From assembly GCA_905178155.1 (NCBI GenBank), contig CAJINV010000005.1, positions 1,046,564-1,110,563 of the forward strand: DNA of 64,000 nt, written 5' to 3'. Under the pieces are notes generated by a model. It was given only the letters and a program-made list of their open reading frames with translations, had not been told where the DNA came from and did no database searches. The translations under genes were made by a program, and so were the position numbers. This stretch comes from Amoebophrya sp. A120. Taxonomy: Eukaryota; Protista; Dinoflagellata. Of this stretch, positions 6,731 to 33,200 are shown piece after piece. Every line of letters begins with the position of its first letter. The stretch's first letter is position 1.

Positions 6731-9700
6731 ATGGGCTCCGACGAGGAGGAGGACAAGAAAAAGAAGAAGAAGAAGGACAAAAAGGAAAAGTCCAACTCCT
6801 CCAGCGAGGACGCCAACAACAAGAGCAGCACGGACAACGAGGGCGCGGACGACAAGAAGAAGAAAAAAAAGAAGAAGTCCAAGGACAAGTCGGAGGACGC
6901 GGTTGCTATATGCTCGTGGACGATTCCCTTTTCTCATCCTCATTTCAATCGCATGCGCAGCGAACACAAGGAACGCCTTAAGTGTAGTATCCGCATGACA
7001 AATCCGCAGGGGCATGTTCGGGTGTTCCGGGCAGTGCATAGTGCACCCCTCGGACCCCGCACCCCCCCGGGCTTTAGTAGCGCAGTCTGTTAAGCATGAC
7101 AAATCCGCACACAATTTTTTTATTGTTTCTTGGGATTCATTCGAAATTCGTCATGCGCAGAGTGCTTAAACGCAAGACGTGAGTTTGGTACTTCGCATTA
7201 TACAAACAAGTTGGAGCTGCATGCCGGAGTTGTCCACTTGCATACGGCAAAGAGGGCGACCATAAAGCCGACGACGCGGAAGACGGGGCGGCGGCGGACG
7301 ACGCGACACCCGCGGCAGCAGGGGAGGATCAGGCGGGGGCAGCAGGGGAGAAGGAGGCAGCAGCGGATGCGGGAGAAGCGGAGAAGAACGAAGCAGCCGG
7401 GGAACTACAAGAAGGCGCCGCGAAAGAGGACGGTGGACCAGAGGAACCACCCGCTGACGGGGATGCTAAGGCGGAGGGAGCAGAAGATGGTAGTAAAGCA
7501 GGAGCAGATCAGGCTGGGGATGATGCCGCAGTGGCAGGAGCAGATTCCGCAGGGAAGAAAGAGGAAGGAGAAGCTGGGACCGCAGAAGCAAAGCCTGCAG
7601 ATGGTGGGGGAAACGATGCTGAGACCAACGACGACGACAAGCCGTGCGGGGAAAAGCCACCTGGATCGGACGACGAGAAAAAGAATGCAGAATCCAGCTC
7701 AGGAGCCGACGAGATGAAAAAAGACGACACAGAGGGACAAACCAATCCGGGCGACAAGGATGCTGAAGCGGCAAAAATAGAATCAGAAGCGCCGTTGAAC
7801 TCCACGAATGTAGTCGCTGAAGAGACGACGAAATCCGACGACGAGCCGATTCAGCGACGAGACAAATTCGGGAACGTTCTGCCCGACAATGTTAAGGAAG
7901 AAGACCTGGAAGAGAAGCCCTCCTTCAGCCCGCGGTCCCCGAAGCCGGTCGCTGTCGAGCGCGGGTCCCCGCGACCCATGTCACCCGGCCGCTACAGCCG
8001 CGACCCGGAAGCCGGTGGCGTTGGCTACCGGTCGAGGGTTGCCGCGATTACCGGCAAGGACCCGGATCTGGAAGACCCGATTCTCGGCGGGAGCACCACC
8101 CAAGACCCGGAGGTCGCGAAGTTCCTCGAGGGCGTCAGCGCCGAAATCAATTTCACCGACAAGACCGTGAACGTGGAGCCCAGCAGCGCCTTCATGGGCA
8201 GCGGCGGGGGGATAAACAGCAAGTCCAGCGGCGAGCCGCCGATGATGGACTTTTTGCGGAACAGCAACCCAGCACCAGCCGGGGCGCTCGTCCCTGGCTT
8301 TGTTCCAAACTATCTCGCTGCCGCCGGCGCGCAACCCGTGATCACGTCCGCGCGGTCAAACAAGTTCGCAGACGTCGAGGTCGCGATGCCGCACAATCTG
8401 GTTCCCGGACAGCGGTACGACCAGGTCGAGCCCCGGGTGTACGACCACGATTATTCGCCGCAGAAGCACGCTCCGGAGAAGGCGCACTGGTCCCAGCAAT
8501 TCGTGAACAACCTGCGAAAATCCGACGAGGACCTGCTGAAACCTATCGTATTTAAAAATGTCCCCACACCATAGTTGTAATGCAAATCTGCATGCTGAAA
8601 ATGTTTCTCATGCGGAGCCCTATGAGAAGCATTTTCCAGTCGTGTTTTGGAATTTGTCATGCTCCAAGCAGCATGATGTACTAGATCTGTGATGCTGCTG
8701 CGCTAGGTCAAACAGCACTACACTACGAGTCCAAATTTGTCATGCAAAACAGCCAAACCTTGTGGATTTGTCTAGCCGATTCCCCATCTTGACTTTGGGG
8801 TGGGGACGTTTTTACATAGGATAAAACCCCTTCCCACCGGCGTGGCGGGCGCAGCGGCTGCGTCCTCCAGTGCGATGCACCACGCGAAGTCGCCGACACA
8901 ACTTCTGCTCGCCCCGGGGGCCGCGAGCGGCGCCGAAGCCCCGACGAAGTACGTGCTGAACCCGGCGTTTTTGCCGCTGGGCGACATGATCGACAGTGTC
9001 ATCCGGCAGTTCAAAAACTGGCTGCGGTTGAACGACCAAAAGCTCACCCGCGCGGAGGAAAAAGTCGTCGAGTCGATCGTGAAAGGGTTGTCGATGAAGC
9101 TGACCCAGGTGGAGTTTGAACCAATCTCCGACAAGAAGGCCCAACTCAACCACGTGTCGGCGGTCATGGGTACGGTCGGCGGCGTCCCCGCCGGCATGGG
9201 CGTCGGCATCACGGCACCGACGGTCGCGGCGAACGGCAAGAAGTTGCTCCCGCCGCTGGGCACGAACAACGGGGAGATCGAGAAGCGGAAAGAGGAACTG
9301 TCGCAAAAAATCGCGTCCCGCGAAATCATCCAGTGCTTGCGAAAACCCATGAAAAGAATGGAACCGAAGATCTACGAGCGGATCCGAAGGGGGTTAACGG
9401 AAACCTTTTGCTACTTCGCAAGGTCTATCCTGTGCAAAATGAAGGATGTGGCAGTGGTAAGGAGTCGAAATTTGCAGTGCAACGGTCCTACCTGTATGAA
9501 TACTTATTCGGTCCTACCTGCTACAATTTTCAGTTTGGTTCGTCCTGAAATTGAAATTTTTGCTGCAAAAATTCTTACTAGTACGATGCTTTTTCTTCTG
9601 CACTGCATACCGTCAGACGTGAACTACGACCCGTATTCCCCGGCAAAGTGGATTTCCGCCCGGCAGTGGGTGATGTTTGTTCGCTGCTTCGAAGTCTCCG

Positions 9701-11765
9701 CGATCACCGGGATCTCGCACGAGGATTTGTGCGAGAAATTTGGGCCGCGGAAGGAGCCCATCGAATTCGTCGACTTCATGCAGATGGTCAGCGACATTGG
9801 ACGAAAAACCATGGAGTTGCTGCATCGGAAATCCTTTGACGAGTTGAACATCTACCATGAAGAGCCCAAGACCTGTGCACTGTACCGGTTCACGGAGGTA
9901 TTATTTGTTTTTTTTCGAGCGTTTTATTGCGGTGCATTTCCATTAAACTGTTCATGTTCTGCTTTTGTTTCTGTATGCGATGAATCCATGGTGCAGTACT
10001 AAAACAACTGCGCCCTCCTGTTTTCACGTAGTTATCACGCATATACAGACTCATCTTGTTAAAATACAAGGTTTTCGGTTTCCACGACGCGAAAAATTCG
10101 TTTCGGCAATTCCTCCGTGGCAGGGAGAAAATCCGGACGAAGAGCCGCACAAAGGGCAAATCCCCCGCGACGTCCGAGGGCCCGGTCCCGCCCGGCTCCC
10201 AAGTCCCCATTTCGGTCGCGAAGAAGAAGGCGTCCCCGCGGGACCCCAACGTCTTTCCGCCGACGTTGCCCCCAAGACCACCGGCGCAGGACACCCGGCC
10301 GAAGCACGCGCACAAGCACCTAGCGCAGCACAGAGGGCGGGCGTATCTAGCCGCCCGGGGGGATCAGTCTAACGCCAGTTCGGCTTTGGATCGAGATTTC
10401 GACGTCAGCAGCATCGGAACGTTCGTGCACCCGCCGCAGATGCCGATGCACCAGCCGGGCGCGCCGGCGGGAATGTCGCCGTCGATGATGCACCAGCGTA
10501 ATATGAACATGATGCAGCCCGCCCCGACGTCGCAACTACAGCAGCCACAAGTCCTCGTGAGCGGTTCTTCGAAAAAATCCAACTATTCGCACAACAATTT
10601 GAATTTTCCTCAGCAGCACCACAGCATGCTGCAGCAACCGTCGGTCGTGCAACAGCAGCAAACCTCGGCCTCGCCCGGCGCGGAGACCACCCTGCCGCCG
10701 ATCGTTTCTCCGCAGATGCAACAGCTGTATTCCCTGCAGCAGGAGCAAATCATGAACAACCTGATTCTCCAGCAACGGCAAATCGTCGCGCTGGCGCAGC
10801 AGCAGGCCGCTTCGTTGTCCCCCAAAGCGGCGAACGCGTTGTCCGGCGGCATTGTGAGCTTATCCAACCCGCTGTCCGCGGTACAAAGCAAAAACTCCGC
10901 GGTGCAGCTCGACCTTGATCCGAAAGCCACGAAGGAGGACGCGAGTTTTCTGATTCCCAAACCAACAGCCAGCGGAGTGAACATCCCATCATCAGGGACC
11001 ACAACGGCCGCCCCAGCGGGAATAAACGCCACGCCGAGTGTGGTCGTGAGTGCAGGAGCTGGTGCTCCGGTATCTGTAGTTGCGGAGAACAAGGCCGAAG
11101 AGCAAGTAGGACCTGGAACTGGAGCGGGAGTAGACGATGAAGCAGCGTATGACCCGGATGACGAGAATTACTTCGTAGGAGAAGACGGCTATTGGTACTA
11201 CTACGATGTGAATACCGGCGAGTCAGTGTACGTAGAAACGAGTGATGTGCCCGCAAGATTGCGCGGAGAGGAGGGGGACGCGGGTGATGCAGGTGCCAAA
11301 CGTATAGTGGGTCATACATAAGGAAGTTGCTGAAATTTGATGTATTCCATGAATTAGATGTATTGCTGCATCGAAAGCTAAACGAGGCGTGTGACGAACA
11401 TGATGCGTGTTAACATAAATAGCAGTGTTTCCAAAATTTTCCAATCAGTCGCGGAGGAGGATACCTGGGCGGAGCAAGGTGAGACTTGGGCGGAGCCAGG
11501 CGAGGAAGCAGAGTGGAACCCAGCCGACGGGGAGTGGGATGAAAACGCAGCCGCTGAAGGGGAATGGCCGGCGGACGAGAACTGGGAACAAAGTGCCGCC
11601 GGCGCGGGCGAGGACGACTGGGGCGGTGAAGCGGAACAAGCTGCGGCACCGGCAGTGCAGTATGACGAGGAAGGAGGGTACTACGATGCGGAGGGCGGGT
11701 ACTACGACGCCGCGGGGAACTACTACGACCCTGAGGGCAATATGTACGCCGCGGGAACGTATTAG
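6731..11765 (+). CDS. Large multi-exon hypothetical protein (Lys/acidic N-terminus, central globular region, Q/P-rich region, acidic W/Y-rich C-terminal repeats)
   Basis: Frames join across 6902-7254 (GT-AG), 8544-8828 (element plus TSD), 9426-9614 (element plus TSD, in frame), 9898-10070 and 11302-11448 (both GT-AG). Ends at TAG 11765. Confidence 0.7.
6903..7250. mobile_element. Decayed TIR element forming a GT-AG intron (6902-7254)
   Basis: Left ttgctatatgctcgtggacgattcc vs reverse complement of right end ttgccgtatgcaagtggacaactcc. Flanks cgcgg/agagg. Internal gcatgacaaatccgca occurs twice. Removing 353 nt restores frame (EDA|GDHKADD). Confidence 0.7.
8544..8823. mobile_element. Introner-like TIR element, family B; TSD AAACC
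   Basis: Left tatcgtatttaaaaatgtccccacaccatagt; right actttggggtggggacgtttttacataggata. aaacc at 8539-8543 and 8824-8828. Removing 285 nt gives LLKP|LPTG. Homologous to 31642 and 48523. Confidence 0.92.
9426..9609. mobile_element. Introner-like TIR element, family D; decayed TSD AGGTC/CCGTC
   Basis: Left end tatcctgtgcaaaa is identical to the left end of 34410. Right end ...tactagtacgatgctttttcttctgcactgcata resembles the right end of 34410. Removing 189 nt is in frame (FARS|DVNYD). Confidence 0.7.
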
Positions 11766-12706: not shown

Positions 12707-15330
12707 ATGGCCACAAAGAACGTGCAATTTGAGGTGACGGGGAGCAAGCCTCCCGCCCCGAAGCCGATGAAGAAGCAATTGTGGTCTCTGAATCCGGACC
12801 GCTACGACATCGATACGGTCATCGGGACGGGGTCCTATGGTAAGTGGAAGTTTATGGATCCTGGATGAAGATCGCAAGATAGAATTTCTATGCGAGACAT
12901 TCCTCTGTCGTACTACAGGACCGTGCACCAAGAACAGTGGATGGAAGTAAGCCACAGACCACTGCCAAGAGCATATTTTTTCCCACATCCACAACAGGTC
13001 AAGTGTACGGTGCACAGGACAAGTTTACGGGGAAGAAGGTCGCGATAAAGCGGTCGAAGGACGTGTTTGGTGAACTGACGGACTGCAAGCGAATGCTGAG
13101 GGAAATCGCCATACTGAACCGGATCGAGCACAAAAACGTCGTGCACCTGCACGAGCTGTATCTGCTGCCGAACCCTGCAAATTTCACAGAGATCGCCCTG
13201 GTCTTGGAGCAGTGTCAGTTTGATCTAAAGAAGCTGTACTTATTTTTTTGCTGCTATAATGATAATTCTGTTTCATGTATGCTTTTTTCGGTTCTTTCGC
13301 ATGCTGTGATTGTGCCATGTGCATGTCCACCTTCGGGAGCATCTTTCTTGATTAGAGAAACTGAAGCGTTACGAGCCTGTTTCACCAAAATGCACTGGAT
13401 TTTGAATCAGATTCAAATCGACGGAGCAGCTGAATGAAGCAGAATCAAGGACCTTGTTCTACCGGATTTGCTGCGGCGTCAACTACCTCCACTCACAGGG
13501 CGTCTGGCACCGCGACCTGAAACCAGCAAATGTATCATTGAACGATTTTTGCGTGACATATTCTGATTGCATCACACACTATCATTTTTATTTTCCGCTT
13601 GAAAAGGGTACTGTATCGTGCATAAAGATAAAACGCATGTCGAAAACCTACAGATCCTTCTCAACACGGACTGCACGGTGAAAGTGTGCTATCGCAAGAA
13701 AAAAACTGTCTTAGTCTCAACTTGTAATGCCGCGGACATTCTTTTTTCCTTGAGACCACAGGCTTTTGTCATAACATGCTCGACATGCAAGTGCAACCTA
13801 AGTCATCTTTCATTCGTGTTTTCTCTTGCTTCTGGCGCATCATTTCGTCCTGAGCGAATTTGTATTGCCGATTCTGCAAAGGTTTGAGACTGAGACAGTT
13901 TTTTCCTGGGATATGTGCGACTTCGGGCTGGCCCGCGCGGTTGGTCAGGACAACATGTCCCTGCAGATGCTGGAGCAGGGGGCTCAGGATGCACACGTGA
14001 AGCGCGACCTCACCGCCCACGTGGTCACCCGGTGGTACCGCGCGCCGGAGCTGATTCTGCTGCACGAAAACTACACGGAAGCGATTGACGTGTGGAGTCT
14101 CGGGTGCATCCTGTTCGAGGTGATGCTCATGGAAAAGAGATACTGCGAGAAGGCAGACATTCCGAAGAAGCGCGTGCCCCTGTTCCCGGGGGCCTGCTGC
14201 TACCCACTCAGTCCGCGGAAGGACAAGAACGACAATCCGATCGAGGTATAATGGAGATCAGGAGCGATTTTTGCAGTTGCTGCATTTAAACCGTTGTACA
14301 TTTATTTTTTGTTGTGCATAAAGTTAAAGTAGCATACGGAAAAATTCATCTCAGGTCGACCGCAAGCACGTGGACCAGCTGCGCGTGATTTTTGAGCACA
14401 CTGGGACGCCCAGCAAAGCCGACTACGAGTTTTTGAGCAATCCCGACGCTAAGCACTACTTGAAGAAGCACTTTCCCTCAGAGACGGCGAAGAAGCCGAT
14501 CTGGTTTTACCACCGCTTAAACGGCATTGAACCGAAGCTGCACGATCTGCTGTCCAGGTAGAAAGGATAGTAAGTTGTAATTGACGAATTATAGTTGTTA
14601 TACAAAGTTTGCCTACAGAAGTAGAATGAGGAACGAAACGAAATCTGGTGTAGCTGTTCATGCAGGAGTAGATCAAACACTTCTACTTCCAGAAAAACCC
14701 AATAACTCCGCCAGGTTGCTCGTGTTCAACCCGCAGAAACGCATGTCCCTGATGGATTGCATGCACCACGATTTTCTCGCGAAAACGGTCCGCGAAGAGG
14801 AGGCCCGAGGGAACTTTTTGCCGGGCCGGGGGCCGCACCGGGGGGAGGACGTCGATATGATGGACATGAACGGGAACTGCATCGTGGAAAGCATCAAGTT
14901 GCCGTTTCCGGACCACTATCAAATGCAAAAATGTCTGGGTCTGGAAGAATGAAAGATTTATCATGCTTGTCTGGCATGACTGTTAACTCTGTGATGCTTA
15001 GGCGTAAAAAGATCCTCTTGCGTGTCATGCAAAAATGGAGCCTGTCATGCGGAATACGCAACATACAGGAGCTCAAAAACTTGTCATGCTTGGTCACCTA
15101 TATCAGTGAGCTCATTACTGATACAGTCGCATCACAAGTTTCCAGACCCAGACATATTTGCATTTGATAACCACCTGGAGATGAATGAACCGGAGTTGCG
15201 CCAGTACTACGTGTACGGATTGGAAGTGAGACTAAATTTCGTGGAACGCACAGGAGGCAAGCATCGCAGTAAAGGATCCATATTTGCAGTGTTGGAACGC
15301 GGTGGATTTAACTTGTCATGCGAGCAGTGA
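12707..15330 (+). CDS. Atypical alveolate-type MAP kinase (T-A-H activation motif; Plasmodium MAP-2-like); 3' end uncertain
   Basis: Spliced protein IGTGSYG|[16 protein letters not shown]|[12 protein letters not shown]|[35 protein letters not shown] introns 12840-12997, 13236-13410, 13532-13653, 14246-14354, 14558-14714. TIR elements at 13690 and 14917. Confidence 0.9.
13690..13913. mobile_element. Introner-like TIR element, family C; TSD TGTGC; splits the kinase KVC|DFG
   Basis: Left tatcgcaagaaaaaaactgtcttagtctcaa; right ttgagactgagacagttttttcctgggata. tgtgc at 13685-13689 and 13914-13918. Confidence 0.95.
14917..15169. mobile_element. Introner-like TIR element, family A; TSD ACCAC
   Basis: Left tatcaaatgcaaaaatgtctgggtctggaa; right ttccagacccagacatatttgcatttgata. 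accac at 14912-14916 and 15170-15174. Removing 258 nt gives FPDH|[11 protein letters not shown]. Confidence 0.95.
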
Positions 15331-16492
15331 TTCAGAGCAGTTTAGTTACAGTAGGGGAGCTGCGTGCTCCTGCACTGGACCTGCAACAGGTTGTGCGTAC
15401 ACGATCTGTAGTTTATTTGCAAGTGATAACGGGCAGGAAGAGTCGATTAGCCGCGTGCGCGACCAGAATAACCGCCGCACCAGGAGCGTCAACATGCACC
15501 GGTGAGAAAGGTGGGTGAATCTTGTGTGCCAGGTGGGTTTCCGGAGAAGCATCCCTGCTATTTTTAGTTGTTGCGCGCCCACAATTTCGAAATTCTTTCA
15601 ATTTTTCAAAGAAAACCTTTAACCTAATCATGCACCGACTACGGATACATTGGAATTGGTCCAGAGATGACAAAAAGAAAGTTTTTCGATATGACATGCG
15701 CATATCACAAAGTCGAGAGATTACCTTTTACTAGCAAAGAGAGAGTACCTCTACCAGAGTCTACCATAACTGAAATTTTGGAAGAAAGATTACAAGCGAA
15801 GATTTTTCATGAAATGCCATGTAAAAAACAGGTTTTTGATTTACAAAATTATATTTCACCACATTGTCGTTTTGTCATGAAGTGTTTGTAGGATGGTTTC
15901 GCGTACTAGTAGCGGAAGGGCTACTTCAGATGCAAATGAATTTTGATGATTTAGTTTCAAGAAGGCGAGCACAGCACTTTTTCATGAACGAGCATGCCCT
16001 TGCAGAGGTATTAATTTACTTGGCACTAACTACAAAAATCGCAAACGGCGATGATGTGACCATGACACGCACAGGATTCCAAGCATGACCATACAACCCC
16101 TTTTGGCATCGAAAGTCAACATCAATTACCCTGCTATAATTGACGCTCATTTATTCGTCTTCAAGAGAATTTTTTGTGAACAGCAATCGGAACTAGCAAG
16201 AAAAAGTCTATTTGTTGCGACTTTTAGCTGTCGTCGTTTCAGCGTGTTTTTGTACCGCGGGGCGTGTTCATGCCTCCATCCCGAATACCCGGAGTCTTCA
16301 CCGACTGATGACTGGCTACTCAACGTAGCATCTAATGTCCGGTGGAGAAACTTCTGGCGTACTTAACAGCTTTCTCACAAATACGACGAGAGGCACGACT
16401 CTACTTCGGTTCTTCCAATAAAGGCGATTAGAATCCAAATCTCAGATCAACGTCTTCCTCGTGTAAATAAAAATCGAAAAGCAAAACCGAAG

Positions 16493-19171
16493 ATGACGTC
16501 CCCCGTGTCGTCCCCTACATCTTCCGGTCAGGGAAATGCCAGTAGCGGTGTGTTGGAAAAGAAAGCGCAAGGAGCTGCCTCGTCTTCCACGGACGTCGCT
16601 GCGGTATACTGTTCTTTAGACTTTTCTCACTTTGCTTGCCACGCTACCTAACATTCTATTCAATTTTCATATTGCATTGTCGATGTCTTGTTCAAGTGAA
16701 GGTGGTCGAATAAATCGTTTTCATCTCAAGTTTGGTCTTTCCATCGACATCGTTCCTTTCCAGGCGCCATCCGCTGCCGCAGCTCCGTCCGGGGGTTCAT
16801 CGAAGTCGGACAGCAAAGACTACTACGGGGCGTATGGTCAGGAGCAGGACTTTTACGACTACAACACGGGCGGAGATCATGATTACAACTACGACTATCA
16901 CGGACAAGCAGGAGCAGGGGCTGCTGGTCCGGCACACGACCAGCAGCACGACGAGGCCTACGACCCCAACTACGACTACAGCCAGGACTACAGCAACAGC
17001 AACGTGGCGTCTTCCACGTCCTACCACGACTACAACAATTACTACCCGCCGACCAGTGCTTCCGGGGAGCACAACTACTACGCGATCCCGATCGCAATGG
17101 AGCCCTACGCGATTTTGGAAGAAGCCTCGCAAAAAATCAGCTACAACACGGACTGGGCTGGGCGGGAAATCCGGAAGCAGATGGCGCAGTGCCGGGTTCG
17201 CCTGCAGGAACACGTGATCCACCGGAGGCGACAGGTGTCCGACGCGGACACGGACAGCGAGGACGATGAAAACGTATCGCAAGAAAAAAGTGTTACAGTT
17301 ACACATTGTGTTGCAGGCCACGCAAGACAGACAAGCTCTGTCATGCCGGATATGCATAGGAGCCTCGTTTCATAGGTGTTTTCCCGTAGGATTTCTGCAT
17401 TGCAAATTTTCTCTCTCATGCAAAGAAATTTGCGTTGCTGAATTCACTACAAATGTGTAACTGTAACACTTTTTTCGTGGGATAAAACGAGGCGTTTTAC
17501 GACTACCGCCAGCATTTGAACCAGCATTTGCAGGAGGCTTGGACGAAAAAGCAGCAGGAACAACTGGAAAAAGATTTGGTTCCCGTGTTTGAGTTCTTGG
17601 ATTCTTTCCACTTAGTGGGGCAGCAACTGGAGTTCATCGCGTCGCAAGTCTCGCAAACCTCCATGGCTCTCGCGGAAAACGTGACCAACTGGTGCGCGGC
17701 GGAGTACGGCTGGACCAAGCACGTGCAGACGTTGAACATGAAAAGCAGCGACTTGCGGCACAAACAGGCCATCGCCCAGGCGAACAACAATCGAGTCAAG
17801 TATAAATGAATGTAGTTTTTGTGCTTCCATGATGGTACACGTTCTTTGGATAAAAATGGCAGAATTTCGAAGTTGTAGAATAAGTTCTTCTCTGTAATTT
17901 TTACGAAGTAAAAATGCGTTGTAGTTCGTGCATGGCACAATAAAGCTGCCTATGAGACCACTTAAAACACCGACCTCCACGGCAATATCAGGCAGCAGAT
18001 GCTCCTTATCGGGGAGGAGCAGAAGCCGTCTTGGTTTTCGCGGAAGGGGAAGTCGCTTGAAAAGCTCGCTGAGGACCAGCATCGACACCAGCAGGCCATC
18101 GCGGATTTTGAGGAGCAGCAGGAGAGTCTGGAAACGGTGAAATCGAAGTTGATTCCGCAGGTCCATGAAGACCTGGAGAAGAAGCGGAAGGAGATTTTGC
18201 AGGCGGTGGACGACCTGTTTCTCAAAGCGAACTTCGTCGTCGGCTACAAGACGGACCCGAAGGAGTTCCGGAAAACCACGCTCGGGGAAGACAAAACCGC
18301 GGCCGGAGGAAGTGCCGGCACAGCAGGTTTTTCGGCGGATGAGTTGGGTCCGCCGCTGTCGTCCAAGCAGTCGCTCAGTGCTAGCGACGAAAAAGGTATG
18401 AACGTGAAGCAGGCGAGTAAAGTGACGCCGGTAGACAACGTGCGCATGGCGGATGAAGTGGCGGTTCCAGCTGAGCACCACGCGGAGAACGAAAATGATG
18501 TGTCTTCAAAGGAGCAAACCAGTAGAAAAGATGTGGATGGAAGTGCCAATAAGGGTGGAAAACCTCCTGGTTCTACCAGTATGTTGAAAGGCTTTGGAAA
18601 AGGAAAACCGGAGGCGCCCCCGAGTAGTTTTCATCCGAGCGCAGGAGCTGCGGATGCGGAAAGTGCGAAGCGCCCGGTGGCGTTTCCGAGCAGGACTGGT
18701 CCCGCTGCTGAGGCAGACAAACCCGCGGCTCCCCCGGTCGCAGCCGCGGCGAATGTGGAAACCCCAAAGCGGCCGGGCGCGCCACCACCGACGACCGAGA
18801 AAGAGATATCGAAAGAAGAAGGTGTAAGCGAAACCACGTCTGTCACACCCAGCGTAGCCGCGACCGTGAGCACCTCAACAGCGGCTACGTCCGCTGTGGT
18901 GTATGAACCCCCGGCACCGCCACCACCAGCACCAGCTGCTGTTGCGCAAGAGACGAAAAGTACTTCCGAAGAGGAGATTGTCGTCGCGGAACCGGAACGA
19001 GGCAGTGCTGCAGGGGGACAAGACCAATTGCCGGGCGCGGTGGTGACTGAAGCAACTACGGGAAAGAAGGCCTCGAAAGGGAAGAAGAAGAAAGGGAAAA
19101 ACGGAGGCTCAGCTGCGTCTTCCTCATCGTCGTCCAGGATTCTGGAGGCGGCAAACAATCCTTTGGCTTAG
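16493..19171 (+). CDS. Hypothetical protein (Tyr/Asp-rich N-terminal part, coiled-coil middle, Ala/Pro/Lys-rich tail); predicted exons 16493-16603, 16764-17274, 17490-17799, 17992-19171
   Basis: GT-AG introns 16604-16763 and 17800-17991, plus the element at 17275, join ORFs 16632, 17516 and 17999 in frame. Confidence 0.7.
17275..17484. mobile_element. Introner-like TIR element, family C-related; TSD AAACG
   Basis: Left tatcgcaagaaaaaagtgttacagttacacatt; right aatgtgtaactgtaacacttttttcgtgggata. aaacg at 17270-17274 and 17485-17489. Removing 215 nt gives DEN|EAFYDY. Confidence 0.93.
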
Positions 19172-19705: not shown

Positions 19706-21204
19706 ATGATGCAGCAGTCTCCATCTCCGCACCGTTCGGCATCGGCGCCCTCCACGGCTCCCCGCAGCCGTGGCCGCTGCTCTACTGCAGCGTGGGTTTT
19801 TCTCGCAGCAAGCTTACGCGAACTTTATTTGCGTGGCCCGCAGCTGCAAGATCCTGAGTCGCATACTCTTGTTTCGGTGTGGGGCGTCGTCGCGGACGAG
19901 CACGGTGCGCAAGAACGCAAATCGGAATCCTCAATTTCTGACGCTGGGGAAACCAGTGTCTTGCTTCGAAGCGAGCATTTGCAAAACGGCAAGGATTTGC
20001 AGAGGAGAGAAACAGAAGACCGACATCATGACCATTCTGCGGGAAGAGTGTCAACATCTTCCTTTCGTTCCAGCCAGAACGAAGGAAAAGTCCATCCAAC
20101 GCAAAAGCCGAAGCCAGGGAAGCAGCTGAGGGACGAAGCAGCAGTAGCTGCAGCACAAGAAGAACCGCCGGAAGATAGGACGAAAAACCCAAACGCGATT
20201 CCGACACGGGACAAGAACTTGAAGATGCAGGACAAGCACGAGTTTTTGCTGAACAGTACTGCTAGCACTGCTTCGCTGGCACAAGAACATCAAGGCCAAC
20301 AAAGCGTCGCGAAGGTTGGCAGAGGAGCTGCGGGGAGAAATAAACGCGCTGGTCGTGCAAAGGGTGATACGATCAAGGCGCTGTGCGAAAAGTACGAGCG
20401 GCATAGCGATATTTCCGACGGGAGCCTGTGTGCGCTGACGACCGACACGCGATGCTCCATAAAAACGCCGGAAGCCGATGACGCAGAGCTTGAGGACCCG
20501 ATCGACGGCCAGTGCTGGGAGATCGGGTCCACCGACTGCCCCTTCGGCACGGAGGGGACCAAGTGCGAAACGATAGACGACTGCGCGGCGGCGGCCGACC
20601 GGGGCAAGGCCAAGTTTTTCGCCTACGGGACCGGCGCAAACGACTACTGGTGCAAAATCTACGACGTTTGCCCTAGGACAGCGGAATAAATACGGGGAAA
20701 CTAAGTTGTCAACTGATCGACCGCCTTTTTTACGAACTGCAATAAAGTGTCTCTGTTGTGGCATGTTATTTTTTGCACCGTTCGTGCTGTGAGGTGGCCT
20801 CGATTTATTTCTTTCGGAGAACCTTTTTTTCAGGGCAGTTTCCTTCATTTTTGCAGAAGAGAAAATATAAGGTGAAAGTGAAACATATTGCAGCAGGAGA
20901 AAATATCAGTGCACGGGTTTTCTTCATCTTCACTGTCATATCCTCCGCGGCGTACAAGGAGAGCTGGACCACAGCCCACGAGTACAAGACCTACAAGTGC
21001 ATCGAAACCGAGAAGGTAGACGGAGGCAAAAACGCGACCGAAAACGACACCTCTACAGAAGACTCCGGGAAAGGTCAAGACGATGGTACAGCAGAAGCGG
21101 AGACTGCGGAAGATCACATGATGCTGATAGCTGCCGGTGGGGCGGGTGCAGCGGTTGTCGGGGGACTGCTGTACTACCACATAAATGTGAAGCCACTGTT
21201 TTAG
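19706..21204 (+). CDS. Putative type I membrane/surface protein with Cys-rich (PAN/apple-like) domain; paralog 1
   Basis: N-terminal hydrophobic stretch (AAWVFLAASL), Cys-rich domain (CETIDDCAAAADRGKAKFFAY..YWCKIYDVCP), C-terminal hydrophobic segment MMLIAAGGAGAAVVGGLLYY. Frame restored by removing 20674-20945. Confidence 0.65.
20674..20940. mobile_element. Decayed TIR intron element; TSD TGCCC/TCCTC
   Basis: Left taggacagcgga vs reverse complement of right end tatgacagtgaa. Removing 272 nt gives DVCP|AAYKESW and keeps the Cys-Pro seen in the paralog (DACPT). Confidence 0.65.
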
Positions 21205-21980: not shown

Positions 21981-23843
21981 ATGCAGTTAGGTCTTGGAAA
22001 AACGTCTTCCCGTAGTTCGGCATCTCTGCGATCCGGCCGCCCGGCACTCGCGCGCCACGAGCGGATACGCTTCGCAGCGTGGGTTTATGCCTGTGCTGCA
22101 ACGAGGATCCAGGGCGTTGCAGTCGACCCGAGTCAACACTTGTTGGTAGACCAGCACAACGAGAAGCAGGAGCAGCCTGCCCAGAGCATAATTTCCGACA
22201 CGGGGGAGACCGATGAACTACCAGCGAGCGGCCTTTTGCTCAGAAGCGAGCACGTGGAGAATCGACCGGAACGAGGGCAGCAGGAAAGTGTACTAGAGGT
22301 CGACGTCACGGCAGCTTCACCGTCCAGTGCTGATACGAAAAATGTAGTTTCTGAGAAAAGTAGTAGTGCACGAGGTAAAGAAGACGTGCAAGAAGCATTA
22401 GCACCGACAGACCAGCAACGGGACCGCGGCGAAGAAGTAGCTGTAGATGAAGCGCACCGTCTTGCAGCTCGCGTAGAAGCTCAAACGTTGTTCAGAAACG
22501 AAACTTCAGCGGTGCTGCGTCCACAAACAGAACAGCATACGCAAGGGCGGGAGTTTTTGAATGCTAGTGCCAAGGATCGAGCAGGCATAGGAATCATCCG
22601 AACTACGGGGGGAATCGTGAAGAATAATTACACGACCTCCGGAGTAGAAGATGAAGGAGTGTGGCGCCCAGGAAGTGCAAGTGCGCTGCTTGATGAAGGT
22701 AGTAGTATACAGGGATCTGCGAGTGGTGGTCGTGTAGTAGCAATCCACACAACATCAAGGGAAGATGAACATGAACAAAAAGGTGAGCAGTTTAAATTTG
22801 CGACCCGTGCCGGACAGGGGTTCTGTGACGCTGGATATGATGTCTACGACGCGGTTCCCTCCGGTAAAATATGTGGACGAGCGGACGGTGAAGAGTGCAC
22901 CTGGAGAGTCTGGTGCGGAGACTACACGAGCATTTTGCATTGCAGGGAGTCCGGAGGTTCGTATGTGCACAAACCGGGTATGGTTTTTTTTGCCGTTCGA
23001 CCCGCCGGTCTCGGGCACGTGCAAGCTGATGTGGGGGAAAAAATGCCCATTTGACGTGAACAAAACCAGTCCCACGTTTGACGACGATTTCTGTACCTCG
23101 ACGGACGTCTGCGCCGCGGAGGCCGACCGTGCGCACGCAGCCTTCTTCTCGTGGAAGAAAACTCCAAAGGAAGGAGGCGGTTATGTTTATTGGTGCAGGG
23201 TATTTGACGCTTGCCCCACCGCCAGGTCGGACTCAGCTGGCTTTGTGACCTATTAGCAAATGCAAATATGTCTGGGTCTGGAAACTTGTAATGCTTGCTA
23301 GGGAAGAGTGAATGCCCTGCCACTGTAATGCGCCGCCTTGCATGAGAAAGGTCTGCGCTGCTTAGTGTTGCGTTTTCCGCATGACATTTGCATGACACCA
23401 CAAACACCGTGAGGACGACCACAGGGGGCCCGTCTCAATGATGATGATGATGATGATGACGACAGGCAAGAGGCCCTTTTCCGGCTAGTCATACCAGACA
23501 AGCATGACAAACGCGCATTCTTCCAGACCCAGACATATTTGCATTCCATACCTATCGCTGCAAGACAACGACGACAACCACCACCTCCACGACCACCACT
23601 ACCTCGACGACGACCACGACGACATCCACCACAACCAGCATTTCCGTGAACGAAACTGCCCAAGACAACGCGACCGCCGAAGAGAAGGGCGGAGGCAACG
23701 GTGCGGACGAGAAAGCAGCGGCCGCCGGAACGGGAGGCGGCACCACCAACATTATGCTACTAGGCGGCGGAGCTCTGGCCTTTGGGGGAGGATTGTACTT
23801 CTACCTCGGCCAAGAAGCCGACGGAGGTGCAGGGGCGTTCTGA
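21981..23843 (+). CDS. Putative type I membrane/surface protein with Cys-rich domain and Thr-rich stalk; paralog 2; unresolved frame change near 22900-22990
   Basis: Shares ISDxGET..LLRSEH and CxxxDxCAAxADRxxAxFF..YWCxxxDxCP with paralog 1. After removing element 23254: FVTY|RCKTTTTTTTS...; TM-like IMLLGGGALAFGGGLYFYL. Confidence 0.6.
23254..23550. mobile_element. Introner-like TIR element, family A (opposite orientation to 14917); TSD CCTAT; internal (GAT)n microsatellite
   Basis: Left tagcaaatgcaaatatgtctgggtctggaa; right ttccagacccagacatatttgcattccata. cctat at 23249-23253 and 23551-23555. Removing 302 nt restores frame. Confidence 0.93.
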
Positions 23844-29100: not shown

Positions 29101-29166
29101 TTGCAGGAGCAAGCTCACTGGACGGAAGTCGTAACCGAAGAAGGCGGGAGGAAGGGAGGGACATAG
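26122..29166 (+). CDS. Hypothetical 1014-aa protein, apparently intronless
   Basis: 3 kb ORF with globular W/F/Y-rich blocks separated by Ser-rich linkers. No family recognised. Confidence 0.7.
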   Translation: MSELQRPRVFWRDFYYVDLPDGKRCWWSALLRLASTRRSREGSTTEATEEISESIMLKIAERYWCANRRGFLVFNFLSCLFFHLSLREHCATFTLTSAATAPLLPDRNIGSHQDVAFHPAPGRRGTAPPTISKSWRRFFLRPFQCARRNGGQSGASGETVARADGTPSEDEQRKTERASEALLQRHAAEDWIARAETALAENRGFEWTGSVYSKNSLPADFWTRIAGGGGWAVEDENLTVVDHAPPCSSLFPTHDNADDVILRRSILCDKRRSSRSRHLGGEQVEPQEDSTSSRPMPPPPMQKMRRVDNRQDQVQETEVQPVHRIVAGDYCSRLQVTNTIYHNSCKRAAPAETIGTRTRFVDAPRKEVLNLLQSRRSIETDKNNSSHDHVDLVDFYGSTASGKMAQHFRPLQNGFLRVVTGNVKKLYGGVLPTYTDFEDRHALVRGAENGSRKLVELRSYLDVRVLGCSLFPGAASTPKSCKKGSVVPSTTKSATSASSSCSTVPNFGCSTSPGSTTPGSTPGSSVDMSCTSDSAFCAPSFGGGEEPQHCVGSPSVAGKENPHPNLDAGSVPEFVGADFLEPPKHAAWRSLRIYENSGVGVQQPEEPLGLGRQQPHLRRRPPVTRVWIRYLVFWEPTDTGIPKALHALAQDAEQLEFEALQSHVAAEVGRAASAEQHLRSGAQEKLKGTGTSSLPPKSGTGSDRLMLPEGWKKDDLPPPDSAFWFSTGSSVPPDHNSAADLGRKKVEWYLFHAKLDTPSGKGRRGSTSSSKHSLSYPERVDFRNGVRWQAVFDLSKMSAEQVAQDLQTLVSPLLSGQQEGEDDYIYKRKTHELLHSQTAKLKSPLWLLGRSTLISSEVVSSTPEQRHVRGRGRAPVDFKGLPPVEAEFEDLHRYGAKEHQFLPYSVSRYNPWVQPTMGAPKDMSGLWTVRKSLTWKDEPRRFVEFSYEMIWAEHEDGRPGWRMDDRMSAFVKFALKPPTELGHRKEFEAIKKQLQEQAHWTEVVTEEGGRKGGT

Positions 29167-30274
29167 GTTCTAAAAGCCCTTGCGCAGTGCATCTCTCCCT
29201 TTTTTTCCTCAACTGATCACCAGCTTTGTCTCTTTTAGAGACACAGAGACAGTGGGTCCACCGACTTGTCTGTGCTGCATTGATGTGTTGCTCCATTGCT
29301 ATTCCGAATGCCATGCCACGCATTTTGTGAGGATCATTTTGCACGAGAATACTGTAGTTGAAATGAAAGAAGGCACAGCACATGGTCGTCGCGTTTCTGC
29401 GTGTCGTCGTGTGTCTTGCCGTAGTCAGGTCGTCACAGTCACATAAATCTCATTCATTGTAGTTTGCAAATCGCCAAGAAAAAATGCACTGAAATACAGT
29501 TTTGTTTGATAAACGCAAAGAGTTGACGGAAGAGAAGGACGAGACCAAAATTGCATGGCGATGCCAGTGCGGCTGGCTCTTTTACTTCTCTGTATGGAAA
29601 GGCCGGCAATAACAATATCCTGCAAAGTGTAAAAAAAATGCTGTCCTCGCTGCGCATCGGTCTTTGCGGTTCTACTACTTTGTTTCATGCCGTCGAGTCG
29701 TGTTCCGACTTCCAACCGTATCATAGATACACCCTTTTTGAGAACCCAATTGACTAGCCGGACACGTCAGCCTAAGGTGGTACTCGTGTGTACATCGGTC
29801 TAAGTAACGAGAAGCACATGTAGGTCTTCGACATTTGTTAAGAGCGCTTCTTCTGCGACACTTAGTCTCTCACGTGTGTATCTAGCACGCAACTAGCTTC
29901 TGACGTGGACCGATTCGAATCAGGTTCAATAAGGAGGAAAAGTTTCACTTTCACGGAGTGGGAAAGAAGTATTGACATACACGTAGGCGGAAAAAGCACT
30001 TACTGCACTTACTTGCAGGTCCTCATTATCAAAACATATGGATATATACTCTAACTACTAACCCTCCAGAGATCCTTTACTCGTTCCATTGTTCCTAGTA
30101 CTGTATACAATTATGGACAGCTGCTCCTCGCCCCAGCCTCTCTGCCGTCTGTCTTAACCCCATCCCCTCACCAGCCCCCCGAGGTCGCTTTCGCAGTGAA
30201 CAACCTACTGCGAACAACCACTTCCCTCCCCCCCACCCCACACTTCTCCCTCCCCCCCTTAGTATCGAAGCAAG

Positions 30275-33200
30275 ATGGAGTTGAATCTGGTGAAAGCGCA
30301 ACCCTTGCGGTCGGTGTACGTGCGGGCGGATGTGTATGGAAGCGTCAGGTTTGAAATCGACAAAGTTGAAATGATTTGTCATGCATACAATGGATACCAG
30401 TTGGAAGCCCAATTTCCAAGCGGCGCATGACAAATTTTCGGAGCTCTGGAATCCAATTTGTCATGCTGTTTGGGCACAGAAGACTGCTTTTGTCATGCTC
30501 CTCTAGCAGCTCTATCCCAAACCCTAAATAGGCTCACAATCTGCCTCATTTGCCATCCCGGCAAGACAGGCATTCCATGCCTTGCATTTTAGGCATGAGA
30601 AAGCATTTCAACTTTGACGATTTCAATCCTGACAGGTCCATAATGTGAATGCGTTCGAGGCGGTGATCGACCCCAGCATCCGCGAGGTGTACAGCGACAA
30701 CAAGTTTCACACCTCCACAAACGCGAAGATGGTGGAACAATACATTCTGCAGTCGGGGTATCCAAGAAAAAAACGTTGTTAGTGTAAATTTGTGATGCGC
30801 AACATGCAAAGTAATTGCGTCTGTCATGCTTGGCATGCATCGTAGGGTCCATTAAAGGGCGTTTTCACGTACTATCTGCGCATGACAGGTTTTTGCTGTC
30901 ATGCCAGACAAATTTGTAATGCTGTTCCTCCAAAGAAGTTACACCTACAATGTTTTTTTCTTGGATACGGGGGAGCAGAAGGGGTTCCAGACCCGGGACA
31001 AGGAAATCCTGTGGAACATGGAGATCAACACGTTTCAAGTGCGCCACGAGGTGGCCAAGGAGTGGTCCTTTTTCGTCAGCGTCATGGGCCTGTCGCACTC
31101 GCAGAAGGTGGCGGCCGACCACCTGCAGTTGGTCAACAGGTGGAGCGGCCGGAAAATCATAGTGATAATCGCCGACCACGGGTTCCGGGGTCATGGGTAC
31201 AGCAGAGTACCTGTTTTTTCATGCACTTTGACTTTCTCTCGCATAGGGTTAGGGATCCGATTGCATGGATCCGTGACTCCTTTTTCTCCAAATGGCGCGG
31301 TGTCATTTTTCCTGCCTCTTTTAACATTTTCGCTTCGTTTCCTAAAGACAAAAATTCACTTCACCGCAGCGCCCACGAGTTTTTCCAGATAGCGATTGCG
31401 TTGCATACGCAGCTGGGCGCCAACGTGCTGATGTTCGAATCTCCACCGGAATTCGAGCGGAATGTGCGGGACTACGTGGAGATTATGCCCTCCATCATCC
31501 TGAAGATCCTGGATTTCTACCGCATCCACAAATTTGCCGCGTTCGGCCTCGGGTACGGGGGCGCAGTGGCGTTTCGGCTGTACATGCTGGCCCCGGTTCG
31601 GTTTTCCTCCCAGGCACACGTGATGATCAACCCCAGGTTCCTATCTTGAGTAAAAACGTACCCACACCAGAGTCAGGATGGGGATTTTGCAACACAAAAC
31701 TAGGAGTTTTGTGAGTCACGCATGACAAGTTTCAGTCCGTAAGGTAGTGCAAGTTAGCAAGGAAAGCCGCATCACAAATCGACCTGCTGATCCTGTTTAC
31801 AGCATTACAAGTTCCCAAACACGATTGAAAATGCCTGTCATGGGGTTGCGCATCACAAATGTTCCTGTCATGGCAAATCTGCATGACAACTATGGTGTGG
31901 GGACGTTTTTACACAGGATAGTTCCCAGAGGGCGTGGAGCTCCCGGAGCGGTTCGACATCGTGAAAACGATGAAGCGGGTCGGGTTCGAACCCAGCCAGT
32001 TTTGGCTGATCCGGTTGCAGCGGAAACTCGATCAGGACGGGCTACCGATAAAATCCACCAGAATAACGCACGAAAAAAGAAAGATATCGGACAAGGTGAG
32101 AAAGAGCCGTAGTATCTATGGATAAGTAGCTACGGACTAGTCAACATACAGGTGAACGTGGACATCACTATGATTTGCATTAGTTTCCACCATGGCAGCT
32201 CGTTTGTCTTACACTTGCTTTTGATGATCTCTAGTACTGCTTTCAGCAGTGGAAAAATTCGAAGGACCACAAAAACGTCGTCAATTGATTCAAACAACAG
32301 ATTCTCGAAGACAGTTTCCAGAGCCTGCTTCAGCGCGTTATGCAGGAGATCAAGGGGTTGAAGAAGCGCTCCCCCGACGAGGTGAGGACGAAAAATGGAG
32401 CTTTTTTCGACGAGGTAATTTTTTCCCAGGACATCCACTACAAAAACATGCACTGGTTCCGGATGTTCCCCCACGACCCCCAGACGTTGTTGATCCTCTT
32501 TTCCCGAAAAATGACCAAGTGCCTGATCACCTACTTTGTCGCGCAACGGTTTCCCTTCCAGCACGAGGTGATCCCCATGCCGGGGTCGGAGCTCGCGGCG
32601 GTGCAGGACAAGAAGGCACAGGAGGCGGAGGAGGAGGAGGACAGCCCCGGACAAAAGAAGGGAAAGAAGAAGCGCAAAAACGCGAACGCATCCTTGCGAG
32701 AGATGGGGATCGGGGTCGGGGCGGCCGGCACGACCAGTGCGGGGTACTGTCGTGGCTTTTTTTTGGTGCCCTTAATGTCACTGTGAATCAGAATCTGGTG
32801 GATCATGATCTGCATGGCAAGTAGAATTCTTTCTGATGCTCACAATTTCAAACAGCTCACCGTCCGTCTCTTCCCCCGCAATGAGTCTTGTCAAGGGTCA
32901 GGATGGACAAAACATAACCGCCAGCAGCGGTTCGGGTTTTGAAAATAATCTGAAAAAGGAGATAAAAGCTGGTGAGGCCGCAACATCCAATGCCGCGGGG
33001 GACGCACAAGCGGCGGGTGAAAATAGCAAAGCCGCGGAAGGTAGTACCAGTTTAACAGAGGCGCAACAGCCAACCCAGCCAGCAGAGGGAGACCCAGCTG
33101 CATCCGCACCGGCCAAGGAAACCCTGCTCCCGCCCGTGGGGGAGTCACCAAAAGTTAAAGAAGCAACACCCGCGGGGGGCTTGGGTTTGATAGACGAGGG

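Follow-up and report, generated by a model that had tools for sequence, protein, structure and literature searches.

Introner elements in a 64-kb window of Amoebophrya sp. A120: probable splicing at a fixed distance from the element ends and no drift toward GT-AG

Elements of the window and their families

The window, i.e., the whole 64-kb stretch of DNA analyzed here, which an exact protein match assigns to Amoebophrya sp. A120, carries inserts that correspond to the published introner elements of this organism, small transposons with TAT...ATA ends and a 5-bp duplication (TSD), located within coding sequence in both orientations and at unbiased targets. In the list below, a flank pair comprises the 5-nt stretches left and right of an element. 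Two registers of excision are referred to throughout: in 4|1, four bases of the left copy are exonic and the intron extends from left position 5 to right position 4, while in 5|0 the T of the element is the first intron base and the right copy is intronic in full.

3755..3955, + strand: young element, perfect 5-bp TSD CTGAC, 3' terminal A changed to G
8544..8823, + strand: young element, TSD AAACC; element and one repeat copy removed in the annotated protein
13690..13913, + strand: young element, TSD TGTGC
14917..15169, + strand: young element, TSD ACCAC
17275..17484, + strand: young element, TSD AAACG
23254..23550, + strand: young element, TSD CCTAT, TAG start; host gene is a paralog of the gene at 20674
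30335..30642, + strand: young element, TSD ATGTG
30759..30967, + strand: young element, TSD CGGGG
31642..31920, + strand: young element, TSD GTTCC
34114..34366, + strand: young element, TSD AAACG
34410..34561, + strand: young element, TSD CGCAA
48523..48801, + strand: young element, TSD TCGCC
48948..49215, + strand: young element, TSD GCGGC
6909..7244, + strand: decayed element, TAT...ATA, TIR 15/20, flanks TGCTA (6904-6908) / CGGCA (7245-7249)
9426..9609, + strand: decayed element, flanks AGGTC (9421) / CCGTC (9610)
15214..15428, + strand: likely decayed element, flanks ACGTG / ACGGG, TAC start, TIR 9/20
20674..20940, + strand: decayed element, TAG start, flanks TGCCC (20669) / TCCTC (20941)
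17800..17991, + strand: canonical GT..AG intron, flanks TCAAG (17796) / TCAGG (17988), with TAT...ATA only
31197..31369, + strand: ordinary GT..AG intron (173 nt) with neither repeat nor TIR, in place of the 50-nt intron 31197-31246 of the first-pass annotation
9898..10070, + strand: canonical intron, TAT at +2..+4, ATA at -7..-5, AG already in the left flank
35004..35539, + strand: canonical intron, TAT/ATA triplets placed as in the 9898 intron, AG already in the left flank
6902..7254, + strand: in-frame GT..AG alternative of 353 nt proposed in the first-pass annotation; the genome annotation uses another intron

Among the 13 young copies, position 5 of the duplication is C in seven, G in four, T in one and A in one, exactly as tallied in the first-pass annotation. 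Annotated proteins lack the element at eight of nine sites in three mapped genes, the exception being 9426, where it is retained.

The wider catalogue is limited to copies with recognisable ends (TIR 9-20 of 20). A 5-nt duplication is exact in 299 of 417 catalogued elements, while one element each has 4 nt and 6 nt, in keeping with the boundary direct repeat of 3-5 nt described for A120 introner elements. The terminal inverted repeat of these elements (TAT, then a run of A downstream) is likewise present: in a catalogue seeded on TAT ends, 321 of 332 oriented copies have TAT at the 5' end and 314 at the 3' end. Best matches between elements of the window and those of the other loci reach 80-95% identity, so that repeated families are evident, the largest five of which comprise 102, 51, 44, 25 and 23 copies. 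The two orientations are found at 47:55, 23:28, 22:22 and 12:13 in the four largest families. With TIR, constant TSD, short length and occurrence in both orientations, the elements resemble MITE-type TIR transposons; Farhat et al. (2021; PMC7789003) report no transposase for them in A120. The composition of the duplication is unbiased, with G at position 5 in 64/201 and AG at positions 3-4 in 12/201.

Decayed copies and the origin of GT-AG boundaries

The first-pass annotation had proposed that old elements are converted into GT-AG introns, based on five flank pairs, all of which are present (CGCGG/AGAGG at 6898/7251, AGGTC/CCGTC, TCAAG/TCAGG, TGCCC/TCCTC and ATGGG/ATAGG at 31193/31243). The three intervals derived from them, 6902-7254, 17800-17991 and 31197-31246, do begin with GT and end with AG; two of the three, however, were mis-called as introns, and the third resembles an ordinary intron.

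At the first of these sites the element had been taken to begin at 6903. Two of three alignments to related copies end exactly at 7244 and the third at 7247, which places the element at 6909-7244, with true flanks (TGCTA/CGGCA) that match at two of five positions. The annotated protein P0005 and our own gene model both choose an intron of 341 nt (6908-7248, AT..GC in 4|1) instead of the 353-nt GT-AG version. Among 22 curated canonical introns, not one has the donor GTT or the acceptor GAG of the latter. The predicted RNA stem of the element reaches 6903/7250, and minor use of the 353-nt intron may occur. The interval 31197-31246 is not an intron in its own right: proteins of three strains cross the GT..AG intron 31197-31369, whose flanks match at 1/5 positions, whose TIR scores 3/20 and which yields no BLAST matches. 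For 17800-17991, a BLAST search for element homology returned 0 hits, the TIR is only 5/20 and an end-to-end stem was not found (z -0.38); gene B encodes Lys or Arg here, depending on the flank copy. This intron is not distinguishable from an ordinary one, and an element origin is at most possible. The introns at 9898-10070 and 35004-35539 were at most born canonical, as AG is already in their left flanks.

The remaining decayed elements have kept non-canonical ends in 4|1. At 9426-9609, 189 nt are in frame and are kept in the annotated A120 protein; in the ortholog from strain A25 these 63 residues are missing and the protein reads Arg-Ser, for which the first two bases of the left copy are needed. 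The element at 15214-15428, overlooked in the first-pass annotation, lies in the last intron of a MAP-kinase gene and leads to Val or Gly according to register. At 20674, Cys-Pro requires the left TSD copy, as had been stated, and the annotated protein indeed contains Cys-Pro. In 4|1 the four decayed elements are bounded by AT..GC (6909), CT..GT (9426), GT..GG (15214) and CT..CT (20674; intron 20673-20944).

A regression of canonical ends on TIR decay, suggested in the first-pass annotation, is flat (rho -0.017, p 0.78, n=263; most of these oriented copies come from a related assembly rather than from the window), and changes lead toward canonical ends in 10 cases and away from them in 15. GT..AG ends are found in only 6/263 elements in 4|1 and in 9/201 in the best register, so that the elements as a group lack the GT..AG ends of canonical U2 introns. 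Of the six GT-AG copies five have perfect NNAGG duplications, and five of 201 perfect copies are GT-AG; we propose that the few GT-AG copies were born so by landing in NNAGG targets. Non-canonical copies thus stay non-canonical with age within the range sampled (TIR 9-20 of 20); very late conversion lies outside it, since an element whose ends had decayed beyond recognition would be missing from the catalogue.

The canonical introns of the host provide the complementary view. GTA is the donor in 20 of the 22 curated window introns, and among 143 predicted canonical introns 65 carry T and 37 carry C at +4. Flanks match at four or more of five positions in 9/142 predicted introns vs. 7.8 by chance, and neither repeat similarity (73 vs. 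71) nor TIR similarity (630 vs. 637) is in excess in this set. Three window introns have TAT...ATA in register, corresponding to 3/52 GTAT introns vs. 1/90 others (p 0.14); outside the window, ATA at -7..-5 occurs in 0/44 GTAT introns. No conserved A at -7 and no branch motif at a fixed place were found in canonical introns. Farhat et al. (PMC7789003) give inverted and direct repeats for 15% of A120 canonical introns, which exceeds what our counts suggest.

Two explanations would nevertheless derive GT-AG introns from old elements. Conversion, by which the intronic TSD copy is selected toward AG and G at +1 as the TIR decays, could draw on AG being confined to the right copy at 17800 (TCAAG/TCAGG) and at the catalogued copy L051:1063 (GAAAG/GAAGG), on the three canonical window introns with triplets in register, on the 15% of Farhat et al. 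and on boundary changes with age that are reported in Symbiodinium and suggested in Euglena agilis. The flat regression, the count of 10 vs. 15, a copy that differs in the opposite direction (L051:400), the lack of ATA in the 44 introns outside the window, the persistence of non-canonical ends in all four decayed window elements and the mis-calling of two of the three examples together make it highly improbable. A boundary shift, in which chance GT and AG sites just outside old elements take over at the cost of a few codons, is also very unlikely. For 6902-7254, it agrees with an interval that is in frame, only 12 nt longer than the annotated intron and situated in a low-complexity region, with the stem to 6903/7250, which yields a 1-and-4 geometry for this interval, and with an annotation that favours the longer ORF. 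Against it, the annotated protein and the gene model chose 341 nt, the GTT and GAG ends have no counterpart among the curated introns, and a single site is concerned.

Register of the cut and preservation of terminal bases

A fixed splice register within the TSD, as originally claimed, is partly supported: at four sites left-copy bases are exonic (at minimum three at 6909, two at 9426, four at 20674 and four at the catalogued copy L008:9539). 4|1 and 5|0 are not separated by these sites, as position 5 either agrees between the copies or differs silently wherever a site is informative. At L008:9539 the left copy is identical to the empty site of the paralog, and position 4 of the right copy is altered, turning Gly into Val. 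Two of the four sites are based on the organism's own annotation and are weakened by a pipeline that keeps the longest ORF. Among copies with independently called frames, 160/168 return to frame once the element and 5 nt (mod 3) are taken out, as do 12/13 of those with three or fewer flank matches. Registers 0|5 and 1|4 each produce one stop, at one site among 67.

Further attempts to place the cut were less informative. Mismatches had been said to be confined to TSD positions 1-4; in 62 oriented imperfect pairs they number 15, 18, 12, 15 and 15 over the five positions, which fits a uniform spread (p 0.88), and five pairs without a mismatch at position 5 have a chance probability of 0.25, i.e., the earlier pattern was a small-sample effect. 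Codon likelihood favoured the left over the right copy in 28/57 and 7/13 cases, in a test without power. Pfam searches of 61 flanking frames gave hits for four and settled the register of no site, and in PDB searches at L042, L043 and 15214 the matches fell short of the residues in question. An apparent counter-example, L008:9902, where the empty site equals the right copy, was due to a wrong frame call and the change is silent in the true frame; some frame calls in the dataset must consequently be wrong.

At ambiguous junctions, BLAT slides alignments toward GT..AG. When 201 perfect-repeat copies were slid to the best GT..AG fit, T occupied +2 in 137 of 192 non-canonical cases, and eight of the nine published A120 motifs were within the top 16. 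All nine frequent A120 splice motifs have T at +2 as given in Table S4 of PMC7789003; since sliding yields similar motifs, we discarded them as independent support for 4|1, and the published list may reflect aligner placement rather than biology.

The element ends themselves are more telling. Among 332 oriented copies, changes at T1, A2 and T3 of the transcript 5' end number 1, 2 and 8, while at the mirror 3' end, from the last base inward, they number 13, 3 and 2; the neutral expectation per site is 11.6 from internal sites and 13.8 from duplications. Poisson p values for the four depleted sites are 0.0001, 0.0007, 0.003 and 0.0007, and a strand bias of A>G vs. T>C is absent (231 vs. 219). 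The first T and the mirror last base contrast at 1 vs. 13 (binomial p 0.002), while the contrast of the third bases alone (8 vs. 2) is not significant (p 0.11); the contrasts were picked post hoc. When the copies are split by context, the 1-vs.-13 asymmetry is 1 vs. 1 in the 207 with the best orientation calls and 0 vs. 12 in the other 125 (Fisher p 5e-5 for the difference), so that the signal stems from the less clearly coding contexts, which counts against the model. Tolerated 5' variants are TAC (5) and TAG (3); preserved at the 3' end are A-T three and two bases from the end, equivalent to -7/-6 in 4|1. Positions 4-9 show no end-type preference for either side. Since T1 is kept opposite a freer partner and the 3' A opposite a free one, what is preserved appears to be the identity of the base and not its pairing. 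Judged from these sequence comparisons, direction-dependent preservation of end bases likely fixes the cut position. The preserved T-A would fit U+2/A+3, as in the GTA donors of the host. The suggestion that the element supplies +2/+3 (TA) therefore gains from the preservation of its first two bases at the transcript 5' end, with the qualification that the register itself is deduced.

A candidate splicing rule and its relation to known systems

We consider it probable that both cuts are set by their distance from the element ends, one base upstream of the first T and four bases downstream of the last A, and that the elements do not drift toward GT-AG as they age. A host spliceosome relaxed at G+1 and at the terminal AG would read the element's T-A as U+2/A+3, similar to host canonical donors, which consist of GTA followed mostly by T or C. 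The 3' cut would be set by the distance from A-T at -7/-6, and the ends could be held together by the TIR stem; more speculatively, A at -7 might be the branch point. The context of the 3' end is frequently unlike a branch motif.

A cut that is fixed at 5|0, or the use of both registers, is unlikely, even though every informative site permits 5|0 and the mainly TT donors of strain A25, where the inverted repeat starts with TTA, might reflect introns that begin with the first base of the element. T-A as +1/+2 would be unlike any host donor while at +2/+3 it matches GTA, and dual use is opposed by position 5, which mismatches as often as the others and is hence unprotected. A variable cut within the duplication, directed by the hairpin and repeat and conceivably made by a non-spliceosomal enzyme (a mechanism suggested for euglenid nonconventional introns), is rather improbable. 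In its favour, Farhat et al. (PMC7789003) describe splice sites whose position varies with respect to the hairpin and report that U1 snRNA was not found, the 5' A2 is preserved along with its pairing partner, and 34/70 duplication mismatches are synonymous, more than the 35-43% expected with one free copy, though the difference is not clear. On the other hand, T1 and the 3' A are preserved while their partners are freer, the frame holds where the repeat has decayed and the four informative sites all lean to one side.

Splicing at a fixed distance has partial precedents. The A120 introner elements of PMC7789003 share the inverted repeat (TAT and a run of A), the 5-bp direct repeat, families, a length of ~260 nt and non-canonical ends, but according to the legend of Fig. 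3 their border varies or is not known. The 4|1 geometry may already be implicit in the Fig. S23 legend ("1-5" nt) and in the direct-repeat positions of section 11; transcript-polarised preservation of terminal bases was found neither in the available text of that paper nor by literature search. Nonconventional introns of Euglena likewise have arbitrary boundary dinucleotides; their cuts lie at set distances from paired motifs, with spacers of 3 nt on the donor and 5-6 nt on the acceptor side as shown by knock-in (Milanowski et al., 2016, PMC4770533; Nomura et al., 2025, PMC12501133). They differ in the motif (CAG/CTG vs. TA.../...AT) and in the spacers (vs. 1 and 4 proposed here, the total of 5 nt (mod 3) holding in the 160 frame-restored copies and the split being bounded at four sites). 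CAG at +4..+6 pairing with CTG is absent from A120, where the ends are TAT/ATA and the 5' signal agrees at +2..+4 with the canonical donors of the host. In the TSD-recruiting introners of Micromonas, Aureococcus, Symbiodinium and Polarella (Roy et al., preprint 10.1101/2020.10.14.339549; Gozashti et al., PMC9860276), TIR elements also become introns with boundaries inside the duplication, and in Polarella class 12 (5-nt TSD) the donor consists of the last TSD base and the element's first base, a split as in 4|1. These introners, however, have G-initiated donors and AG acceptors and require particular targets, whereas A120 lacks the biased targets of the Micromonas/Aureococcus type and only 5/201 perfect copies are GT-AG. 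According to a review (PMC11282704), MITE-derived introns of Fritillaria borealis share TIR and TSD and species-specific positions and are handled by an adapted U2 spliceosome, but have mainly AG-AC/AG-AT ends and an exonic TAC target, while A120 has neither dominant dinucleotides nor target bias. Trichomonas, Giardia and Yarrowia offer a precedent for a fixed spacing of only a few bases between branch point and acceptor (Irimia and Roy, 2008, PMC2483917); they retain a strong branch motif and AG, in contrast to A120, which preserves A-T at -7/-6 only, in a role that is conjectural.

Tens of thousands of Amoebophrya introns have arbitrary ends, and their mode of removal was left open in 2021. 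Also of note is the negative result that copies are not canonicalised within the sampled age range. More tentatively, and at somewhat less than even confidence, the A120 spliceosome may need neither G+1 nor AG and may take U+2/A+3 and A-U at -7/-6 (perhaps the branch point) from the symmetric ends, cutting by distance, such that an element of this kind with a 5-bp duplication would form an exact intron wherever, and in whichever orientation, it inserts. Under this rule N+1 and the last four bases are free, whereas U+2/A+3 and A-U at -7/-6 are fixed; if true, it would explain insertion without target or orientation bias and show which contacts of the spliceosome are dispensable.

Introner elements and the five cited sites in the window

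The first-pass annotation had proposed a fixed splice register inside the target-site duplication (TSD) of inserted elements and a possible conversion of old elements into GT-AG introns, citing five sites. Overall, the observation is partly confirmed, the register is likely and conversion is not supported. The + strand carries every called gene, and these genes are broken up by inserts of higher AT content, which have inverted TAT...ATA ends and lie between direct repeats of 5 bp. The inserts match the introner elements described in the accessible part of Farhat et al., 2021 (PMC7789003). Two window exon queries matched Amoebophrya sp. A120 proteins at 100% identity, and the protein collection contains four single-exon window products (4 of 9 start variants tried).

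The flank pairs at all five sites are present in the sequence, and mapping of the annotated A120 proteins P0005, P0007 and P0010 altered two calls. For the 6903 site, the annotation has, in place of the proposed GT-AG intron, one of 341 nt (6907-7247, 6908-7248 or 6909-7249), which our gene model also picked, its penalty on non-canonical ends notwithstanding. The middle solution comprises one base, TATGC...GCATA and four bases and has AT..GC ends; homology of the 6909 element to related copies ends at 7244. Since the proposed 353-nt GT-AG intron (6902-7254) preserves the frame and the stem is predicted to extend to 6903/7250, this junction may see minor use. The intron at 31197 is a GT..AG one of 173 nt with its 3' end at 31369 and not one of 50 nt, as the proteins of three strains are continuous over it; the shorter version would insert 41 residues absent from all three. 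The A120 and MMETSP proteins of this gene (30275-35735) have ~1020 residues, and the model from strain A25 ends at 524. The longest contig given for its A25 ortholog has the same length as that given for the A25 ortholog of the 6731 gene, which suggests synteny.

The intron at 17800-17991 has canonical ends and is without element homology, terminal inverted repeat (TIR) or stem; flank matches as good as its 4/5 are about as frequent as expected by chance (9 of 142 predicted canonical introns vs. 7.8 expected). At 20674, Cys-Pro depends on the left repeat copy, in agreement with the first-pass annotation, and four left bases are needed; with four left-copy bases exonic and the intron running from left position 5 to right position 4 (register 4|1), the ends are CT..CT. 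In a paralog of this gene (22960-23050), the frame shifts near a T-run at ~22984-22991 with no evident intron, reflecting an assembly indel or a pseudogene. The 9426 element is in frame and kept in the annotated protein; the A25 ortholog lacks it and requires the first two bases of the left copy. Decayed element plus repeat (9426-9613) form 189 stop-free nt, i.e., 63 extra residues missing from the A25 ortholog, which represent either real retention or a longest-ORF artefact. One further element was noted:

15214-15428, + strand, further likely decayed element

Splice register in a larger sample

A motif scan gave at least 152 loci (at least 497 kb merged), all those listed being from one related assembly with the same element families and with no stretch orthologous to the window. 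Element ends were located by comparison with a set of known termini, leaving the candidate's own repeat unused. At least 417 copies were catalogued, at least 404 in the listed loci and 13 in the window; an exact 5-bp duplication flanks 299 of 417 among those listed. A codon model applied to the flanks gave confident strand and frame for 272 listed copies, adjacent ones being concordant in 128 of 132 pairs. Tests excluded copies with two or fewer flank matches (9 of 272, leaving 263; 29 of 417). Neighbour-based strands increased the oriented copies to 332, with 56 of those listed remaining unoriented. In loci L001-L152, a 23-copy family starting TATCGCAA/TATGCAAG is biased 19:4 in orientation to transcription, unlike four larger families. 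Tandem duplicate genes at L008 660-10200 differ in element insertions, so that at least five sites are represented both with and without an element.

Among the copies listed, the frame is recovered on loss of the element plus 5 nt (modulo 3) in 160 of 168 with independently called frames, including 12 of the 13 whose repeats are badly decayed. The exonic left-copy bases number at least 3 at 6909, 2 at 9426, and 4 at both 20674 and L008:9539. At the last of these, a tandem paralog has an empty site identical to the left copy, and the right copy differs at position 4, changing Gly to Val. These four sites place the cut towards the 3' end of the left copy, which is informative because, the ends being palindromic, the mirror register 1|4 is just as plausible a priori. 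They are compatible with both 4|1 and 5|0, and the proposed register is partly supported; a fixed register relative to the element ends is likely. The published motif table was rejected as independent support: a slide maximising GT..AG reproduces 8 of 9 A120 motifs among the copies listed.

Proposed conversion of old elements into GT-AG introns

Perfect duplications among the copies listed are compositionally unbiased: position 5 is G in 64 of 201 (the flanks contain 30% G) and positions 3-4 are AG in 12 of 201, so that canonical ends are not selected at insertion. Mismatches, described earlier as confined to positions 1-4, are spread evenly over positions 1-5 (15, 18, 12, 15, 15; copies listed). 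In L001-L152, synonymous changes make up 34 of 70 mismatches between duplication copies, slightly more than the 35-43% expected with one copy free. TIR identity correlates with repeat identity (rho 0.17, p 0.006; copies listed) and is therefore a usable though weak clock. The regression suggested for conversion relates it to the canonical-end score and gave rho -0.017, p 0.78 for the copies listed; the score does not follow TIR decay. Likewise among listed copies, none of the 34 most decayed is GT-AG, end changes run 10 towards and 15 away from canonical, and 5 of 6 GT-AG copies carry perfect NNAGG repeats, AG being restricted to the right copy in one GT-AG copy and to the left in one other.

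The 142 predicted canonical introns, a noisy set because the gene model miscalled some window introns, revealed no excess similarity of repeat or TIR. ATA at -7 to -5 occurs in 3 of 52 GTAT introns, all three within the window (0 of 44 outside). The element catalogue spans copies that are still recognisable, which sets the age range of these results. The 15% of canonical introns reported with IR and DR in the accessible part of PMC7789003 is more than the present counts suggest. As far as the accessible texts go, boundary conversion with age and donors split between TSD and element have been reported for other dinoflagellates (10.1101/2020.10.14.339549), and conversion was raised as a possibility for euglenids (PMC4770533).

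Polarised terminal bases and a proposed mechanism

Large families insert in either orientation (copies listed), and differences between 5' and 3' ends must therefore arise from transcription or splicing. Among the 332 oriented copies listed, the three terminal bases changed 1, 2 and 8 times at the 5' end of the transcript, compared with 13, 3 and 2 times at the mirror 3' end, contrasts picked after inspection of the data. For a free site, the expectation is ~11.6 if derived from private changes at internal sites (3.5% for each site, without strand bias) or 13.8 if derived from duplications (copies listed in either case). Thus, changes are fewer than expected at the first two 5' bases, T1 and A2, and at the A and T that stand third and second from the 3' end (p 0.0001-0.003; copies listed); the third 5' and last 3' bases show no such deficit. 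The 13 terminal-A changes stem almost wholly from 125 less clearly coding contexts; the best 207 copies show 1, 1, 7 (5') vs. 1, 1, 1 (3'), the third 5' base alone being free (copies listed). T1 and the 3' A are preserved even though the bases with which they pair vary, an indication that base identity is what is recognised.

In the 4|1 register, itself likely, the preserved bases are U+2, A+3, A-7 and U-6. Donors are GTA in 20 of 22 curated canonical window introns, mostly followed by T or C, and the tolerated 5' variants TAC and TAG parallel GTAC and GTAG. GTAC or GTAT occur in 17 of the 22, and G is not preferred at +5 in the predicted canonical set. Most likely, a relaxed U2-type spliceosome would take the element's T-A as +2/+3 and position the 3' cut by its distance to the A-T close to the opposite end, the TIR stem drawing both ends together; one copy of the duplication would be rebuilt precisely. 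A-7 as branch point is speculative. Short fixed branch distances have precedent in the accessible part of PMC2483917. According to the portions available, U1 snRNA and snRNP27 were not detected by Farhat et al. (PMC7789003), snRNP27 being listed as undetected in both strains, and SNRNP27K loss accompanies +4 U donors in yeasts (PMC10581693); by analogy, snRNP27 non-detection would be consistent with GTAT donors.

The elements themselves are already known, and fixed spacers between paired motif and cut have been demonstrated in Euglena (PMC12501133, accessible part). In the accessible parts of the open literature searched (also including PMC12130899, PMC9860276, PMC11282704, PMC13326754), the splicing rule proposed here was not found stated for Amoebophrya; Figures 3, 4, S19 and S23 of PMC7789003 may show the geometry. 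The young element at L068 5095-5374, whose frame call is not confident, has an exact 8-bp duplication, and removal of the element plus 5 nt would keep the frame and leave one additional codon. What is new and testable in these results is the polarised terminal signal, and this 8-bp duplication constitutes a natural test of fixed geometry.
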